Assembly: GCA_043760135.1 (NCBI GenBank)
Contig: JAYUPL010000007.1
Coordinates: forward strand, 106-64,105
Origin: Candidatus Parcubacteria bacterium
Lineage (GTDB): Bacteria; Patescibacteriota; Minisyncoccia; Phycocordibacterales; CAIZLB01
Direction: 5' to 3'
Length of the DNA stretch: 64,000 nt
Positions 4,270 through 45,502 of the stretch are shown here, in pieces. The notes under the pieces were generated by a model that searched no databases, was not told where the DNA came from, and worked only from the letters and a program-made list of their open reading frames with translations. Every line of letters starts with the position of its first letter. Positions within the stretch are counted from its first letter, which is position 1. The translations under genes were made by a program, and so were the position numbers.

Positions 4270-4848
4270 TTAAGATAAAGATTTAAACAACTCCTCAATA
4301 CCAATTTTTTCTCGTGCAGAATATTTTATTATTTTCTTACCCTCAAAAGCTTTTTCAATAACCTCCATACTTTTAAAAACTTCGTTTTGTTTTAACTTAT
4401 CAAATTTGTTAGCAATAATAACAATGTCTTGCTTATGCTCTGTTAAAAAATTATAAAAATGAATATCATCAACCGTAGGTCCAACTTTTGCATCTATTAT
4501 TAAAACTACTTTTTTTGTATTTGTTTTTTCACTTATAAAATACCATTCTATAATACGAGCAATCTTATCTCTTTGGACATGTGACCCTCTGGCAAATCCA
4601 TATCCAGGTAGGTCGACTAAATAAAATTCTTCATTGATCAAATAAAAATTAGCCTCAGCTGTAAAGCCTGGGGTAGAGGATGATCGTGCAAGTTTGTTTC
4701 TGCCAACAAGAGTATTTATCACAGAAGACTTACCTACGTTTGACCTTCCGATGAAGGCTATTTCAGGCAACTCGATTGTTGGAAGACCTGTGTCATGGAC
4801 TGCTCCTTTTACAAATATAGATGATTTTATTAATTGAGGGTTGGTCAT
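4270..4848 (-). CDS. engB: ribosome biogenesis GTP-binding protein YihA/EngB
   Basis: G1 'GRSNVGKSS', 'DLPGYGFA'; the track ORF extends over tRNA-Leu so the start was moved to the internal Met ('MTNPQLIK'). Confidence 0.8.
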   Translation of the reverse strand: MTNPQLIKSSIFVKGAVHDTGLPTIELPEIAFIGRSNVGKSSVINTLVGRNKLARSSSTPGFTAEANFYLINEEFYLVDLPGYGFARGSHVQRDKIARIIEWYFISEKTNTKKVVLIIDAKVGPTVDDIHFYNFLTEHKQDIVIIANKFDKLKQNEVFKSMEVIEKAFEGKKIIKYSAREKIGIEELFKSLS

Positions 4849-6394: not shown

Positions 6395-8608
6395 TTATTT
6401 TTCTATTACAGAGAATGCAGCTATAACATCACCTGTTACGATTTCTATTTTTGCTTCGATCATCAAACCACACTCTGTATCAGCTTCAACACTCTTAACT
6501 TGTGAACGTGCATGTTGCAATTCAACTATCTCTCCACGACCGATTTCATTATCTCGTCTCATAATTTTAATCTTATCTCCTAGATTGATCTTTCCTGTTT
6601 CAACTTTACCTCCAAGAACTTGTTTTGTTTTATTGGCATTGAAAATCTTAAGAACCTTAAGAGTACCATGACTTTCTTCTTCAAGAATTTTAGGTGCTTT
6701 TGATCGTGCTTCATTTTCCAACCATTCTGAAAGTTTATAGATAATATCAAATGTTTCAATTTTCAAATTCAATTGATTGGCTAAATTTTTAGCAACGTTA
6801 TCAACTTTTGTGTTATATCCAACAATAACAGAGTCTTTACTTCCTTGAGCAAGTTTTATGTCATTTTCGTTGATGTCTCCAGTTTCAGCTCGAACGATTC
6901 TTAGCTCTATGTTTTCAAATTTAATTTTAGCAATTTCTTGTTTAACAGCGTCAAGTGTTCCAACAGAATCTGTTTTCAACACAATAGGGAGTGTCCAATT
7001 GTTATCAACTTCAAGACCGTAAAGTGCACGAATATTTGCGGGAATTTTTGCAGCAGGAACTTTACCTTCATTGTTGACTTCATCTTCTAGTATTTGCATT
7101 TTCTTTTGCTCTTCAGCAAGGAGCTCTGCTGTCTCTTTGTCTTCACACATGATACAGATATCGCCAACTTTTGGGGTCTCCACCCAACCAATAAGTCGCA
7201 CAGGTTGTCCTGGTTCAAAAGTTTTTTGAGCCTTACCTTCAAAATTTTCTATAATTCGAACAGGGGAGATAGCGCCACCTGAAACTATAAATGATCCAAC
7301 TTTCAATGTCCCGTTCTTAACAATCATTGTTGCATGAATTCCTCTTATCTTGTCTCTACCAGATTCGATTACAATACATTCAGCAGGAACATCGTACGCC
7401 GCTTTGATATCAGCCACTTCAGACATCAACATAATCATATCCAATAGATCACTTACACCATCTCCGGTTTTTCCTGAAAAAGGAATAAATGAAATATCTC
7501 CTCCGTACCCTTCAACAAAGATATTGTTTTCTGCTAATGATTGTTTTGTCTTCTCTAGGTCAGCCCCAACTTTGTCAATTTTTGATACTCCGATAAAGAA
7601 AGGAACATTTGCATCTTGAATTGATTTTAGCGCATCGAGTGTTTGTGGTTTAACTCCGTCTTCGGCAGAAACAATAAGAATGGCAATGTCGGCAGATCTT
7701 GCTCCACGATCGCGCATACTTGTAAATGATTCGTGCCCAGGTGTATCAAGGAATGTAATTTTTCCATCATTGTGATTGATTTCATATGCAGACATTTTTT
7801 GAGTAATACCTCCAACCTCACGGTCAGCAATGTTTGATTTTCTGATGTAATCCAATAATGTTGATTTACCATGATCAACATGACCCATGATAATAACCAC
7901 TGGATTTTTTGAACGTATATCTAATCCATCTAGTACCTGTATGGTTTTAACTAGATTGTTTGATCTTCCGCTAATGCGTGTTTTTAATGTAGCAGCCTTT
8001 TTAACTTTAGCAACCCTGGGTCTCTTGTAATATGGTATGTACTCAGTACGAGGTGCAATGTCTCTTTTTGCGAATGGTTTTCTCGGTGTTGATGTTCCTG
8101 TGGTTGTATCTTTACTTTTATTATTTATAAATGTCTTAGCAAATGCAATACCTCTCTCTTCTATTTTTTTCTTCTCATCTTCTTTCTTTTGTAAATCAAT
8201 TTTTTCTTCTTTCGTGATCACTTTTGATTTGAAGAGGGTAGGGGAATATTTTGGAACTGGCTTATGTTCAGGTTTTACTTCCTCAACTTTTTTCTCTTCA
8301 GGTTTCACTTCTACTACAGGTTTGTTTTTATTTTCATAAAATTTAGATGCGTTTTCGAACCAATTATTTTGCTCTTCAACTTTGGTTTTTCTTGTATCTT
8401 CAACTTCCTTACTTACAGCAAAAGTTCTCGAGCTAGTTCTTGGTGCTACAGTTATGGTCTCTTTTGTTGCAGTTTTTTTACTTTTAGTTTTACTTTTTAT
8501 CTCATCTGCCGGCTCCGGTGCCTTATTATCTCCAAAAACGCTCCCAAAAGCATTGCCAAAAACCCCTCCAAATGCGCTATCGTCGTTTTGATTTTTATCC
8601 ATTATCAT
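6395..8608 (-). CDS. infB: translation initiation factor IF-2
   Basis: K/E-rich N-terminus; G domain '[17 protein letters not shown]', 'DTPGHESF'; 737 aa. Confidence 0.9.
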
Positions 8609-9903: not shown

Positions 9904-10590
9904 ATGAATAACAAAAAAATAATAGTATCAATATTGGTATTAATCGTCTTAATTTTATCAATAGTTTTATTTAACAAAACCAGTCCACGAGTGATAGAAA
10001 ATGATGAGGTTGCTACAACAACAACTTCATCATCTACAACAGATGGTAAAATGGTCGTTGATAGTAGTATCAAACCAGCGACTGTTGTAAATGAGTCAAG
10101 TGCTAATTATGAATATACAAATGGAGTGTATTGGGGAATTATTAAAAAATCAGCAATTGCTAATGGGAAATTAATCTTAACTATAGATTTCCTACAATCA
10201 TTCGCTACACAAAAAGAAACAGTTCTTGCTGCGATACAAGATGATGTATGTAAATTTCCATCAAACATGGGTATAAAAAATAAACAAGAATTCGTAGCTA
10301 AAGTTATGACTCTAACAGAAGGTGAGATCGGTGCGTTTATTGCCAAGACAAACTGTTTCCCAGATGGAATAACATATTACAGAAATGCTAGTGCTCAATT
10401 GATAAGTAAAGATGTAGCTGCAAATTTCATTGCATTTTATCCAGCATATCCATCAACTACTATAACAAATACTGGAAACATGAATACATTAAACACTTTT
10501 ATAAACACACAAGGTCCATCAAATCCAAAATGGCAAGTTACTATAAAAGACAATAAAGTTGTTGGGTTAAATCAACCGTATACAAAGTAA
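9904..10590 (+). CDS. membrane-anchored hypothetical protein (N-terminal TM, Thr/Ser-rich linker)
   Basis: ORF with hydrophobic N-terminus 'IIVSILVLIVLILSIVLF'. Confidence 0.4.
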   Translation: MNNKKIIVSILVLIVLILSIVLFNKTSPRVIENDEVATTTTSSSTTDGKMVVDSSIKPATVVNESSANYEYTNGVYWGIIKKSAIANGKLILTIDFLQSFATQKETVLAAIQDDVCKFPSNMGIKNKQEFVAKVMTLTEGEIGAFIAKTNCFPDGITYYRNASAQLISKDVAANFIAFYPAYPSTTITNTGNMNTLNTFINTQGPSNPKWQVTIKDNKVVGLNQPYTK

Positions 10591-10696
10591 TCTTCAGATT
10601 CATTAATTAAGAAAGAAAAATACTGCTCATTTGGGTAGTTTTTTTCTTGAGAGTTTCTTTATGGGAACTTTAGCTGTCTTTTATTATCATTGAAGA

Positions 10697-13000
10697 ATGA
10701 AAAAATATTTTGATCAGTGGAATAATAAAAAGAAATATATAGATAAAACTCCTAAAGATTTGATATTTAATGAAGGAGAGATTTGGTGGTCACATTTCGG
10801 TATAAATGTAGGCGAAGAGGCTTATGGGAAAGGTGGGTATTTTAGGAGACCTGTAGTTGTCTTAAAAAAGATATCACAAAACTCTTGCATAGTTGTGCCG
10901 ACAACCACAAAAATAAAAGAAGGTGAAAATTACTTCAAATTCACAACAAATGATCTAGAAAGAAGAGCTATGCTCTATCAGATAAAGTTTATTTCTGCAA
11001 AAAGATTGTATGTGAGAGAATCTGAGATGGAAAAAGAAGATTTCCTGAAATTAAAAAAATCCCTAGCAAACTTGCTAGAAATCTCTTCATGGTCACCGAG
11101 CGGACAAAAAGGACAATGCTCGGATCAGTGGGTTTCCCCTGGTATGAATCTATTTTATCAAACTCAAAATAATTGTCAAATTTCCAAGTTTTCACGTTCT
11201 GGAATCTGTGCTAAACTTCCATTTATGCAAACATCATTAGAACATAAAAGACATTCCTTGGCGCATGTATTAGCTGGAGCCATATTAAAATTATATCCAG
11301 ATGCTTTGATGACGATTGGTCCTGCTGTTGAAAATGGTTTTTATTATGATATTGATTTTCCAAGCGGATCACCAAAAGAGGAAGACTTTGAGAAAATTCA
11401 AAATGAGATGAAAAATGTTTTAAAAGCCTGGTCAACTTCAGAGCAGAGTTTTGTTCAACAAAAAGTTTCTAAAGAAGAGGCAGAAACTATTTTCAAAAAT
11501 AATTCATACAAGTTGGAACTGATCCAAGGTGTTGTTGATCGAGGTGAAGAAATAACTTTGTATGTTTCTGGGAAAGGTACAGAGTACGAATTTACTGATC
11601 TTTGTCGTGGGGGACATGTTGAGAACACAAAAGAGATTGATGAAGGTTCTTTTGCACTAGATAAGATTGCTGGAGCGTACTGGAGAGGTGATGAGAAAAA
11701 TAAGATGCTTGTGCGAATCTATGGACTTGCATTCGAAACAAAAGAAGAGTTGGATTTATTTATTCATAATAGAGAAGAGGCGAAGAAGAGGGATCATAGA
11801 AAATTAGGAAAGGAATTGAAGCTGTTTACTATTTCAGATTTAGTTGGTTCTGGGCTTCCTTTGTTTCAACCAAAGGGTGCCGTCTTGAGAGTGGAGCTAG
11901 AAAAATACTTGTGGTCAATGCATAAAGATAAGGGTTATCAAAGAGTTTGGACGCCACATCTAGCTAAAGCACAACTGTATGAAATATCAGGTCATGGACA
12001 ACATTACCTTGATGATATGTTTGCAGTGCATGGAGGAACTTCAAAAGAAGATTTTTATTTGAAGCCAATGAATTGTCCTCATCACTACCAATTATTTTTG
12101 GATAATCAATTCTCATATAGGGATATGCCAATCAAATATTTTGAACCGGCAACAATCTATCGTGATGAAAAAACAGGACAATTAGCAGGTCTAACTCGTG
12201 TTCGTTCAATCACTCAAGATGATGGGCATTTATTTTGTCGTTCAACTCAAATCAAGGAAGAGGTAAATATTATTGTAGACATTATCAAGCAATTCTATAC
12301 AACTATGAATATGATTGATGGGTATTGGGTACGACTTTCAACTCGAGGTGATGATAAGGATGTGTATCTTGGGTCTGATGAAGTGTGGGAGACTGCTGAA
12401 AGTGCGTTGAAGGATATTTGTAACGAAAATAATTTACCATACAAAGAGGGTAAAAATGAGGCAGCTTTTTATGGTCCAAAACTGGACTTTATGTTTAAGG
12501 ATGCGATTGGAAGAGAATGGCAATTGGCAACAATCCAGCTTGATTTCAATGCACCAGAAAGATTCAATCTTTCTTTTGTAAATGAAAAAGGTGAAGATGA
12601 AAGACCTGTGGTTATTCACCGTGCCATCTCTGGATCAATAGAAAGATTCTTAGGTGTTGCTATTGAGCACTTTGCTGGAGCGTTTCCGCTATGGCTTTCA
12701 CCTGTTCAATTAAAAATTGTTCCAATCGGTGAAAGACAAATAGACTTTGCACATGATTTATTTAAGAAAATAATGAAGACTGATATAAGAGTTGAGATCG
12801 ATCAAAGTAGTGAAGGACTTGGTAAAAAAGTTCGTGCATCTAAAGTTGAGAAAATTCCATACCTAGTTGTGGTAGGAGATAAAGAAATGGAATCAAATAC
12901 ATTTTCTCTTGAAGGAAGAAATGATGAGAAGATTACAGGGTTAAGTTATGATGACATGGTTAAGTTTTTACAAGATAAAATAGACAGTAAGGCTCTATAA
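10697..13000 (+). CDS. thrS: threonyl-tRNA synthetase carrying an in-frame N-terminal MazF/PemK-like domain (no TGS domain)
   Basis: Residues ~180-767 match ThrRS (editing-domain 'HSLAHVLAGAI...IGPAVENGFYYDIDFP', 'DHRKLGKEL', 'KPMNCPHHYQLF', 'RVRSITQDDGHLFC'). Residues ~1-130 match PemK/MazF ('GEIWWSHFGINVGEEAYGKGGYFRRPVVVLK') and are a paralogue of ORF 45002-45400. No stop codon lies between the two parts. Confidence 0.8.
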   Translation: MKKYFDQWNNKKKYIDKTPKDLIFNEGEIWWSHFGINVGEEAYGKGGYFRRPVVVLKKISQNSCIVVPTTTKIKEGENYFKFTTNDLERRAMLYQIKFISAKRLYVRESEMEKEDFLKLKKSLANLLEISSWSPSGQKGQCSDQWVSPGMNLFYQTQNNCQISKFSRSGICAKLPFMQTSLEHKRHSLAHVLAGAILKLYPDALMTIGPAVENGFYYDIDFPSGSPKEEDFEKIQNEMKNVLKAWSTSEQSFVQQKVSKEEAETIFKNNSYKLELIQGVVDRGEEITLYVSGKGTEYEFTDLCRGGHVENTKEIDEGSFALDKIAGAYWRGDEKNKMLVRIYGLAFETKEELDLFIHNREEAKKRDHRKLGKELKLFTISDLVGSGLPLFQPKGAVLRVELEKYLWSMHKDKGYQRVWTPHLAKAQLYEISGHGQHYLDDMFAVHGGTSKEDFYLKPMNCPHHYQLFLDNQFSYRDMPIKYFEPATIYRDEKTGQLAGLTRVRSITQDDGHLFCRSTQIKEEVNIIVDIIKQFYTTMNMIDGYWVRLSTRGDDKDVYLGSDEVWETAESALKDICNENNLPYKEGKNEAAFYGPKLDFMFKDAIGREWQLATIQLDFNAPERFNLSFVNEKGEDERPVVIHRAISGSIERFLGVAIEHFAGAFPLWLSPVQLKIVPIGERQIDFAHDLFKKIMKTDIRVEIDQSSEGLGKKVRASKVEKIPYLVVVGDKEMESNTFSLEGRNDEKITGLSYDDMVKFLQDKIDSKAL

Positions 13001-44276: not shown

Positions 44277-44321
44277 AATTTCTTTATGAGAACTTTATGT
44301 TGGTTTTGGTATTATTTTTGA

Positions 44322-44801
44322 ATGCTAATCGAAAAACCAAAAAAGCCTGCATTTATCCACGGACCTATCCTACCTCTGAATAAAAGAGAGGAGATGTACT
44401 TGTGGAAAATAAAAAATATTATCAAATATAAAAGCACTCATGAAAATATTGGGTATGTACCCGAATCTTTATCAAAGGACGCTAAAGTCAGACCCCTTAT
44501 TTTATCTCGAAGTATATTACATAAAATTCAATCTGATCATGGACATATTTGTCCAGAAAACATGATTATCAATGCACATCGGTGGGATTATATCGTTTCG
44601 TATCCATATAACAATGTAGACAAGATTGTGCTGGTAAAGAATATACCGAATAGTCGCAATTATTTTGTGTTAGCAGCTAACAGAAATAATGGTTTTTATA
44701 TTGTGACACATTTCGAAGTCGAAGCGATGACTGGAAAAAACTTAAAACGTCTCCTCGGTAGAGGAAACGTTTTAAGTAGGGGGCCTTCTATATGCCTATA
44801 G
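44322..44801 (+). CDS. hypothetical protein, copy C of the ~160-aa paralogous family
   Basis: Full-length alignment to copies A and B; 200 bp upstream of the MazF-like gene. Confidence 0.5.
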   Translation: MLIEKPKKPAFIHGPILPLNKREEMYLWKIKNIIKYKSTHENIGYVPESLSKDAKVRPLILSRSILHKIQSDHGHICPENMIINAHRWDYIVSYPYNNVDKIVLVKNIPNSRNYFVLAANRNNGFYIVTHFEVEAMTGKNLKRLLGRGNVLSRGPSICL

Positions 44802-45001
44802 TACCGATCTGAGACTTTTTCAAGTCAGTATGAGAAGGTGTCATGTGTCATCGGTAATGGTTGTATTATACGCTTGGGTAAACCAAAGTCAAATTGTAGA
44901 ATATTTTGATCATTTCAATGAAATATAATTTTATTTTTTCTTTGGTAAAACTTTAAAATCTCTTTATCAGAACTTTATCGGTATTTTTATAAAATTGATG
45001 G

Positions 45002-45400
45002 ATGAATAACAAAAACTATGATGAATGGAATATATTAAAGAAAAGAATAAATAAATTATATAAAACCAAACATCCAAAAATAAGAGAAGTTTGGTGGGTA
45101 AATATCGGTTTGAATATAGGCTCTGAAATATATGGAAAGGGTTCAAAATATTTAAGACCTGTATTGGTGTTAAAGGTAAATGATGAAAGTTTTTTAGGTA
45201 TACCATTATCATCAAAATTAAGGAAAAGCAAACAAAGATTCATTTTGAAAACAAATGATCAGAAGCTTCATTCCTTGGTTTTTAATCAAATTAAGATTTT
45301 GGACAACAGGAGATTGTTGAGTAAGAAGTATATTATTTCAAAAAATAAATTTAGGAAAATAATCCGTAAATTTAAAAATACGATAACCGTCAATGGTTAG
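45002..45400 (+). CDS. MazF/PemK-family toxin-like protein
   Basis: 'REVWWVNIGLNIGSEIYGKGSKYLRPVLVLK' matches the MazF/PemK core; paralogue of the ThrRS N-terminal domain. Confidence 0.65.
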   Translation: MNNKNYDEWNILKKRINKLYKTKHPKIREVWWVNIGLNIGSEIYGKGSKYLRPVLVLKVNDESFLGIPLSSKLRKSKQRFILKTNDQKLHSLVFNQIKILDNRRLLSKKYIISKNKFRKIIRKFKNTITVNG

Positions 45401-45502
45401 TTGACGGTTATCCGGCCCGAAGGCTGAGGAGCATAAGCTCAACTCGTACCTTCATTGTATCAAATTATCTTTTGCTGTCAAATTTGGTATAATACTCATC
45501 AT

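Follow-up and report, generated by a model that had tools for sequence, protein, structure and literature searches.

Does the open reading frame (ORF) at positions 10697 to 13000 (+) of this stretch, which passes without interruption from a MazF/PemK-like toxin domain into threonyl-tRNA synthetase (ThrRS), encode a fused protein, or is a single frame shared by separate genes? The stretch, referred to here as the window, comprises 64,000 nucleotides (nt) of contig JAYUPL010000007.1 of a Candidatus Parcubacteria bacterium. The first-pass annotation of the locus had offered two readings, either a genuine fusion in which the toxin domain stands in place of the N-terminal TGS domain of ThrRS, or a separate toxin gene and thrS joined by the loss of a stop codon through frameshift or assembly error. 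The explanation that we favour, with a probability of about 0.8, is that the frame reads accidentally through a toxin gene, a convergent small antisense RNA gene and thrS, and that the RNA is probably the antitoxin of the toxin. That three units are present and not a fusion is the part of this explanation of which we are most confident.

The 767-codon frame and its relatives

The domain composition described by the first-pass annotation is confirmed by Pfam. The ORF of 767 amino acids (aa), open in translation table 11, carries a PemK_toxin domain (PF02452) spanning residues 26-126 (33.3 bits, cutoff 23.1; E 6e-8), followed by tRNA_SAD (298-342), tRNA-synt_2b (450-659) and HGTP_anticodon (672-760), and no TGS domain was found in it by Pfam. 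The stretch between the two parts, called here the linker, comprises about 47 codons (residues 130-176). It is free of stop codons, as had been noted, the ORF's own frame being the sole one that is open across 11085-11225. The 767-aa product is called in identical form on two contigs, and it is therefore not a one-off assembly error. The units into which we divide the locus, with the regions preceding the two protein-coding genes, are the following.

10657-10696, plus strand: toxin-gene promoter region, with CTTTATGGGAACTTTA at 10657-10672 and a -10-like TATTAT at 10682-10687 (putative function)
10697-11083, plus strand: MazF/PemK-like endoribonuclease toxin, residues 1-129, no stop codon (PF02452)
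11053-11145, minus strand: small antisense RNA of about 93 nt (covariance model R1; ends predicted from promoter and U-tract)
11209-11224, plus strand: putative thrS promoter, extended -10 TGCTAAACT at 11209-11217, then 7 nt to the ATG (conserved box and spacing)
11225-13000, plus strand: thrS, TGS-less threonyl-tRNA synthetase, 591 aa, complete (TIGR00418, orthologue in locus L008)

When the first 260 residues of the ORF were used as query, the matches were standalone PemK proteins of 160-194 aa (65-74% identity), with no fusion proteins among them. Three related loci, L111 and L112 (ThrRS 90% identical) and L113 (87%), have no toxin gene at the same thrS locus; their gene order is IF-2, aminotransferase, (228-aa protein), thrS and NAD kinase, and the space before thrS amounts to merely 23-97 nt. 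Since these thrS loci are without the toxin gene, the region of about 10650-11186 is an accessory insertion or deletion. The comparison of thrS in related genomes that had been suggested as a check does find separate genes: at the orthologous locus L008, thrS, whose 591-aa product begins MQTSLENKRH, lies 10 nt from a toxin gene of 172 aa. Locus L024 (Candidatus Parcubacteria bacterium LF-bin-100) has a TAA within the toxin gene and an intact thrS. Elsewhere the toxin gene stands between ligA and a hypothetical gene, with gatCAB next (L002, L004, L005 and L009), the module of toxin and RNA genes precedes dnaX (L014 and L016), and L010 presents yet another context.

The best 120 ThrRS homologues (62-93% identical; the named organisms among them belong to Patescibacteria, Paceibacterota and Nomurabacteria) are all of about 575-650 aa, mostly of 575-620 aa, and PF02824 (TGS) was detected in 0 of these 120. 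The TGS domain has thus not been replaced in the window ThrRS, the TGS-less form being the norm of the lineage.

The linker was compared at the level of codon positions between the window and L024. Differences at positions 1, 2 and 3 number 20, 10 and 51 in the toxin region (21.7% of residues differ) and 43, 9 and 189 in ThrRS (6.6% of residues); in the linker they number 7, 8 and 9, and 26-33% of residues differ. Showing no third-position bias, the linker reads as sequence that is not coding. In L008 and L010 its DNA falls in other reading frames; in L014, whose toxin ends ...KKSLAKLLGL at a stop codon, it is intergenic. In every genomic context it is highly conserved at the DNA level. The two marks of a domain-fusion aminoacyl-tRNA synthetase, conservation in orthologues and a constrained linker, are absent here. 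A genuine toxin-ThrRS fusion with a replaced TGS domain is thus contradicted by relatives that are toxin-less, split or toxin-broken and by a linker without constraint. As to the other reading of the first-pass annotation, the separate genes and the lost stop hold, but the cause is not a frameshift or an assembly error but evolutionary loss in one clade.

Three further observations were made at related loci. In L016, at about 7560-7962 (-), a MazF-like ORF runs in frame through the antisense RNA gene into dnaX, giving a 'MazF-DnaX' ORF of 424 aa or more. In L114 (1-250) a 652-aa 'ThrRS' call opens in a GC-rich, apparently chimeric 5' stretch and crosses a partial copy of the RNA element before thrS. 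The 'empty' site upstream of thrS in L113 contains, at 1441-1455 on the plus strand, ATTTGGGTTTACCCA, a sequence similar to the P1 region of the RNA, perhaps as a remnant, perhaps by coincidence.

A small antisense RNA gene in the linker

The linker and the end of the toxin frame are occupied, on the minus strand, by the RNA gene, whose parts are these.

11152-11179, minus strand: promoter, TTGACA at 11179-11174, 16-nt spacer, TG-n-TAAAAT with the hexamer at 11157-11152 (promoter scan)
11139-11137 with 11132-11130, minus strand: P1, with a GAAA loop (GGG-GAAA-CCC) (fold)
right after P1, minus strand: conserved motif ACUGAUCC (comparison)
11123-11118 with 11101-11096, minus strand: P2 of 6 bp, followed by GGUGACC (covariation)
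11083-11060, minus strand: hairpin core of the terminator, followed by a U7 tract at 11059-11053 (U-tract)

The promoter is of the sigma-70 type with an extended -10 and matches at 11 of 12 positions, with the TG, in the promoter scan; 35 of 39 distinct loci have a promoter of at least 9/12 in the corresponding place. The complement of the terminator forms the last toxin codons, ...KKSLANLL. Covariance model R1 matches more than 40 of about 90 toxin-family loci, always at the 3' end of the toxin gene and on the strand opposite to it, the match in the window (11050-11150, minus strand) scoring 90.7 bits (E 7e-19).

RNAalifold, run on a plain MAFFT alignment of 21 sequences, gave 19 pairs, 9 of them covarying. 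P2 occurs as CCGAGC, CCAAGC, CCGAAC, CCAGGC, CCGAGA, CCAGAC, CCGGAC, CCGGGC and CCCCGC, and in every case the other side of the stem is the exact complement. In the alignment derived from R1, paired cells make up 94.9%, and double changes are seen in 17 of the 19 pairs; none of 500 shuffles equalled these values, and slid controls reached at most 59%. The structure belongs to the minus strand: G·U/U·G pairs (44) outnumber A·C/C·A pairs (8), GNRA and UUCG loops can be read on that strand only, and the predicted fold has -32.8 kcal/mol (z -3.65) on the minus strand and -26 (z -1.8) on the plus strand. Outside the pairs, CCCAC(U/C)GAUCC and GGUGA(C/U) are conserved. No Rfam match was obtained for window positions 10500-11500 (E<=10), for 12 related loci (E<=1) or for 3 plasmid loci.

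Several other candidates and observations concern this RNA. ARAGORN found no tRNA or tmRNA in the linker. A DNA pattern scan of representative genomes returned 19 matches, 16 of which are due to chance, those of L014, L016 and L024 alone being real; 45 pattern matches in viral contigs, which would have pointed to an association with phages, were every one rejected by the covariance model. By inspection, a hammerhead-like or box C/D-like reading of CUGAUCC...GGUGAC, which flanks P2, was considered. The A7 run at 11053-11059, the complement of the U-tract, lies inside toxin codons K-K-K; L008 has A8 there, with the last codons of the toxin shifted, so that the length of this homopolymer alters the C-terminus of the toxin. 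Between the module and the hypothetical gene that precedes gatCAB, L002 (about 4500-4690) has a conserved intergenic block of about 170 nt, found also in L004, L005 and L009. It holds hairpins (...GCCTTCGCC..AGCATAGA...TCTATGCT.AAGGCGAAAC...) and is possibly a further RNA with a structure.

The toxin gene

The toxin fold is complete by residue 127-129 or so, and the family profile aligns end to end (positions 23-127) with the Bacillus MazF/PemK chains 7bxy, 4hke, 1ne8 and 4mdx. The catalytic Arg (R51 in the window, at the RP position) and Thr (T70) are conserved in the family, so that the comparison with solved structures proposed by the first-pass annotation speaks for a preserved active site. 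Among 35 metagenome relatives, 24 have the stop codon of the toxin ORF within about 3-18 nt of 11083, and in 24 of the 35 loci the RNA gene overlaps the toxin ORF, which ends there, by exactly 37 nt; in 10 of the 35 the ORF spans the entire RNA gene, as in the window. The stop is missing across a clade of independent assemblies (L002, L004, L005, L009, L016 and L024). Confirmed relatives number 481.

No conserved protein antitoxin was found as an ORF of up to 130 aa ending near the toxin start in 67 loci; one XRE-like small ORF lies upstream of the toxin gene in L058 alone. The genes upstream are unrelated ones (ligA, the 228-aa hypothetical protein and the aminotransferase).

The -10-like TATTAT lies 9 nt before the toxin ATG, and it is preceded by a 16-mer, CTTTAT[G/C][G/A]GAACTTTA, that occurs exactly 40 nt before three ATGs of the window, those at 10697, 45002 and 44322 (copies at 10657-10672, 44962-44977 and 44282-44297; 0.2 expected by chance), the last of which opens an unannotated 159-aa ORF (44322-44801). 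It is also present upstream of the toxin gene in L005-L007. The GGAACTT-like -35 within the 16-mer may represent a shared alternative-sigma promoter or an operator.

Homologues of the toxin are found on plasmids of Campylobacter, Helicobacter, Nitratiruptor and Bacillus. Those of B. velezensis pA and Paenibacillus plasmids (L115, 1162-1770; L116, 1075-1707) are annotated with 202-210 aa, and with about 60-70 aa beyond the PemK domain they may be over-extended likewise. In L115 the homologue is followed, about 530 nt further downstream, by a Bacillus-plasmid RNA (RF01691).

The start of thrS

ATG 11225, which had been named as a possible independent start, is present in the sequence and fits this role: read from there, ThrRS scores 652.5 bits against TIGR00418 (cutoff 383.65) and covers profile positions 1-564 of 565. 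Not only L024, L008 and L114 but also L113 and L111, where the toxin module is missing, keep the TGCTAAACT-type box and its spacing. Of the 46 long ORFs of the window, 28 carry a TAnnnT box, often TGnTATAAT, 4-12 nt upstream of the ATG; among all ATGs the share is 21%. A Shine-Dalgarno-like motif precedes only 2 of the 46. We infer from these figures that leaderless gene starts are the norm in this genome and that thrS conforms to it.

Proposed organisation and function of the module

According to the explanation that we favour, the first unit is a solitary MazF/PemK-family gene, from 10697 to about 11083, in whose clade the stop codon, situated in relatives about 37 nt inside the RNA gene, has been lost. 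The second is a convergent minus-strand RNA gene, from about 11145 to about 11053, with its terminator embedded in the last toxin codons, and the third is thrS, which would be expressed as a leaderless mRNA from the extended -10 box that lies 7 nt before its ATG. The first two make up an accessory module of about 540 bp, found at this site in some close relatives and missing in others, which elsewhere lies before other housekeeping genes. The comparisons above establish the gene boundaries, the structure, strand and promoter of the RNA, the association of the parts of the module and its variable presence.

A role of the small RNA as RNA antitoxin of the toxin is suggested by this gene anatomy and is the function to which we incline somewhat. 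A toxin transcript extending past codon 119 or so would be fully complementary to the RNA, and pairing could lead to duplex-triggered decay, as in type I systems, to which convergent transcription would add interference with toxin expression. The invariant unpaired motifs and the stabilising tetraloops could mean that a protein, possibly the toxin itself, binds the RNA, as in type III systems; such binding is suggested because these motifs and loops are conserved across toxins that are 35-58% identical. More speculatively, cleavage inside the duplex might leave non-stop toxin mRNAs in the clade without the stop codon. We see an even chance that solitary MazF/PemK toxins with a convergent RNA antitoxin of about 90 nt, acting by pairing, by binding or by both, constitute a widespread and uncatalogued family and architecture in Patescibacteria.

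Some results weigh against this explanation. The frame is open and in phase in the window and likewise in L024 and L114, and in L016 the same holds with dnaX. In-phase junctions in 2 of about 4 contexts would have a chance probability of about 0.08, by our own rough estimate. Transcripts reading through could yield some MazF-ThrRS polypeptide, at a low level, and nothing indicates selection on any such polypeptide. The pair statistics given above (17/19 and 94.9%) come from an alignment fitted to R1 and are biased towards the structure. The leaderless start of thrS and the ends of the small RNA are predictions. Finally, L024 has an intact RNA gene next to its broken toxin gene, as recent decay of the latter would explain, but so would another job of the RNA.

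Alternative explanations

It can also be the case, with a probability that we consider appreciably lower than that of an antitoxin, that the RNA gene is real but serves as an independent regulator, as a nuclease substrate or processing target, or as the RNA partner of a ribonucleoprotein. The motifs CCCAC(U/C)GAUCC and GGUGA(C/U), together with the GNRA and UUCG loops, exceed what a cis-antisense RNA would need, and the persistence of the RNA gene next to the nonsense-mutated toxin gene of L024 points in the same direction. Yet the RNA is found only beside this toxin family, with the fixed 37-nt overlap and in many unrelated contexts, and the toxin has kept its catalytic residues in the absence of a conserved protein antitoxin, a situation in which free MazF would need an inhibitor.

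The remaining explanations are all very improbable. A bifunctional MazF-ThrRS protein with the toxin domain in place of TGS would account for the single uninterrupted frame of 767 codons on two contigs and for the same in-phase junction in L024 and L114; it has to contend with close relatives that are toxin-less, with the separate genes of L008 and the stop inside MazF of L024, with an absence of TGS that is lineage-wide, and with an unconstrained linker occupied by the antisense RNA gene and the thrS promoter. We give the same low credit to the conserved block being a plus-strand element, whether a cis-regulatory leader or a DNA site such as a recombination site. The block does lie always just upstream of another gene, and hairpins are possible on the plus strand too, but the excess of G·U over A·C (44 to 8) and the promoter, U-tract and GNRA and UUCG loops, which are on the minus strand only, favour an RNA of that strand; besides, the downstream genes differ, each having its own -10 box by the ATG, and the plus-strand z is merely -1.8. 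Slightly less probable still is that the block extends the toxin by a functional C-terminal peptide with Cys residues (...PSGQxGQCSDHWVSPGM..YQNCxxCQI), which is conserved in five standalone homologues of 165-194 aa. L008 and L010 read the corresponding DNA in different frames, in L014 and 24 of 35 metagenome loci this DNA lies between genes, its substitutions are compensatory in the stems and non-synonymous in the peptide (CCGAGC/GCUCGG to CCAGAC/GUCUGG), and it has no third-position bias. The least credible of all is that a sequencing or assembly error removed the stop or shifted the frame: at 11053-11059, where the window has A7, L008 does have one A more, but the identical product on two contigs and the absence of the stop throughout a clade of independent assemblies speak for a true sequence.

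A second module in the window

The ORF at 45002-45400, which had been regarded as a paralogue of the toxin domain, is indeed one (PemK match with E 9e-8, 32% identical), and it forms part of a second module.

45002-45481, mixed strands: second, diverged copy of the module (Pfam, promoter scan, fold)
45002-45400, plus strand: MazF-like paralogue (Pfam)
45412-45382, minus strand: terminator of 12 bp over the stop codon of the paralogue (scan)
45481-45454, minus strand: promoter TTGACA-16-TACAAT, 11/12 with TG (scan)
45503, ATG: dnaX, directly after the second module, with TGGTATAAT 9 nt before the ATG

The fold of this module has a z of -3.6; R1 gives merely 11 bits on it, and its hairpins are unlike those of the first.

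Significance

The fusion itself is not a real feature. The 'MazF-ThrRS' and 'MazF-DnaX' (L016) frames and the extended ThrRS calls of L114 and L024 are gene-calling artefacts and not novel architectures to be propagated; they arise because mRNAs are leaderless and few stop codons occur across structured RNA genes. The small RNA, in turn, represents a family previously undescribed and absent from Rfam, tied to a MazF-family toxin without protein antitoxin, and this assignment is well supported by the comparative data. If the RNA is the antitoxin, the module would be a compact two-part one, of about 540 bp, and the classification into types I, II and III would be blurred. The position of the module before essential genes in the reduced genomes of Patescibacteria may bear on how such modules persist.

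Comparison with known toxin-antitoxin systems

Type I systems in which a convergent antitoxin RNA covers the 3' end of the toxin gene include txpA/RatA and bsrG/SR4 of B. subtilis. As in these, the toxin and small RNA genes are convergent here, a strong promoter and a terminator belong to the RNA gene itself, and, to judge by gene anatomy, the RNA is antisense to the 3' part of the toxin transcript. The antisense RNA gene of the present locus lies on the strand opposite to the toxin gene and overlaps it by at least 37 nt. The toxin, however, is a PemK-family endoribonuclease of about 130 aa and not a small hydrophobic peptide, the toxins of txpA/RatA and bsrG/SR4 being small membrane peptides; and, unlike the usual type I antitoxins, the RNA is conserved in sequence and structure across toxins that share merely 35-58% identity.

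SymE/SymR and RalR/RalA are type I systems with nuclease toxins, and they share with the module an enzyme-like toxin under a cis-antisense RNA, which is here proposed. Their toxin folds differ from that of the module, and in them the overlap with the antisense RNA falls on the 5' end or in the coding region; SymR- and RalA-type RNAs are not known to be conserved structured RNAs across phyla.

With the type II systems MazEF and PemIK the module has in common a toxin of PF02452 with the catalytic Arg and Thr, but no adjacent, co-oriented MazE/PemI-like gene is present in the 67 loci. With type III systems (ToxIN, CptIN and TenpIN; PMC3401426) it shares an endoribonuclease toxin and a structured RNA. 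The type III RNA is an upstream tandem-repeat array on the same strand as the toxin gene (PMC3401426), whereas that of the module is single-copy, downstream and convergent, and no tandem repeats were found in 10400-11400; moreover, by Pfam the window toxin falls outside the ToxN, CptN and TenpN families.

Two papers that cite Shen et al. 2016 report cjrA/cjpT of Campylobacter jejuni pVir as a type I system with the antisense RNA antitoxin cjrA (PMC10470494, PMC7826846). The pVir homologue of the window toxin (NC_005012, 30630-31034; 39% identity) is annotated as a PemK/MazF toxin without adjacent antitoxin. In L110 (1884-2000), downstream of this PemK-family gene, there are a CCCCGC...GCGGGG hairpin and a minus-strand TTGATT-17-TATAAT promoter with TG, about 90-115 nt from the gene, a layout that recalls the module. 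R1 has no match on pVir (best 8.9 bits, on the plus strand), and the identity of the pVir gene with cjpT, which is unconfirmed, stays a lead.

The name 'pemK RNA motif' denotes a structured RNA so called because it is associated with pemK genes. An Rfam family of this name is mentioned in bioRxiv 10.1101/2024.10.12.618037, and the words 'pemK motif' are absent from the main text of Weinberg 2017. The RNA described here differs from it in that no Rfam family, that one included, matches the window (E<=10) or 15 related loci (E<=1). Literature searches on MazF with an RNA antitoxin, on toxin-antitoxin systems of Patescibacteria and on leaderless translation in Parcubacteria found nothing directly relevant.

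The module thus fails one defining feature each of types I, II and III. In its presumed working, it would be most like a type I system with an overlap at the 3' end of the toxin gene.

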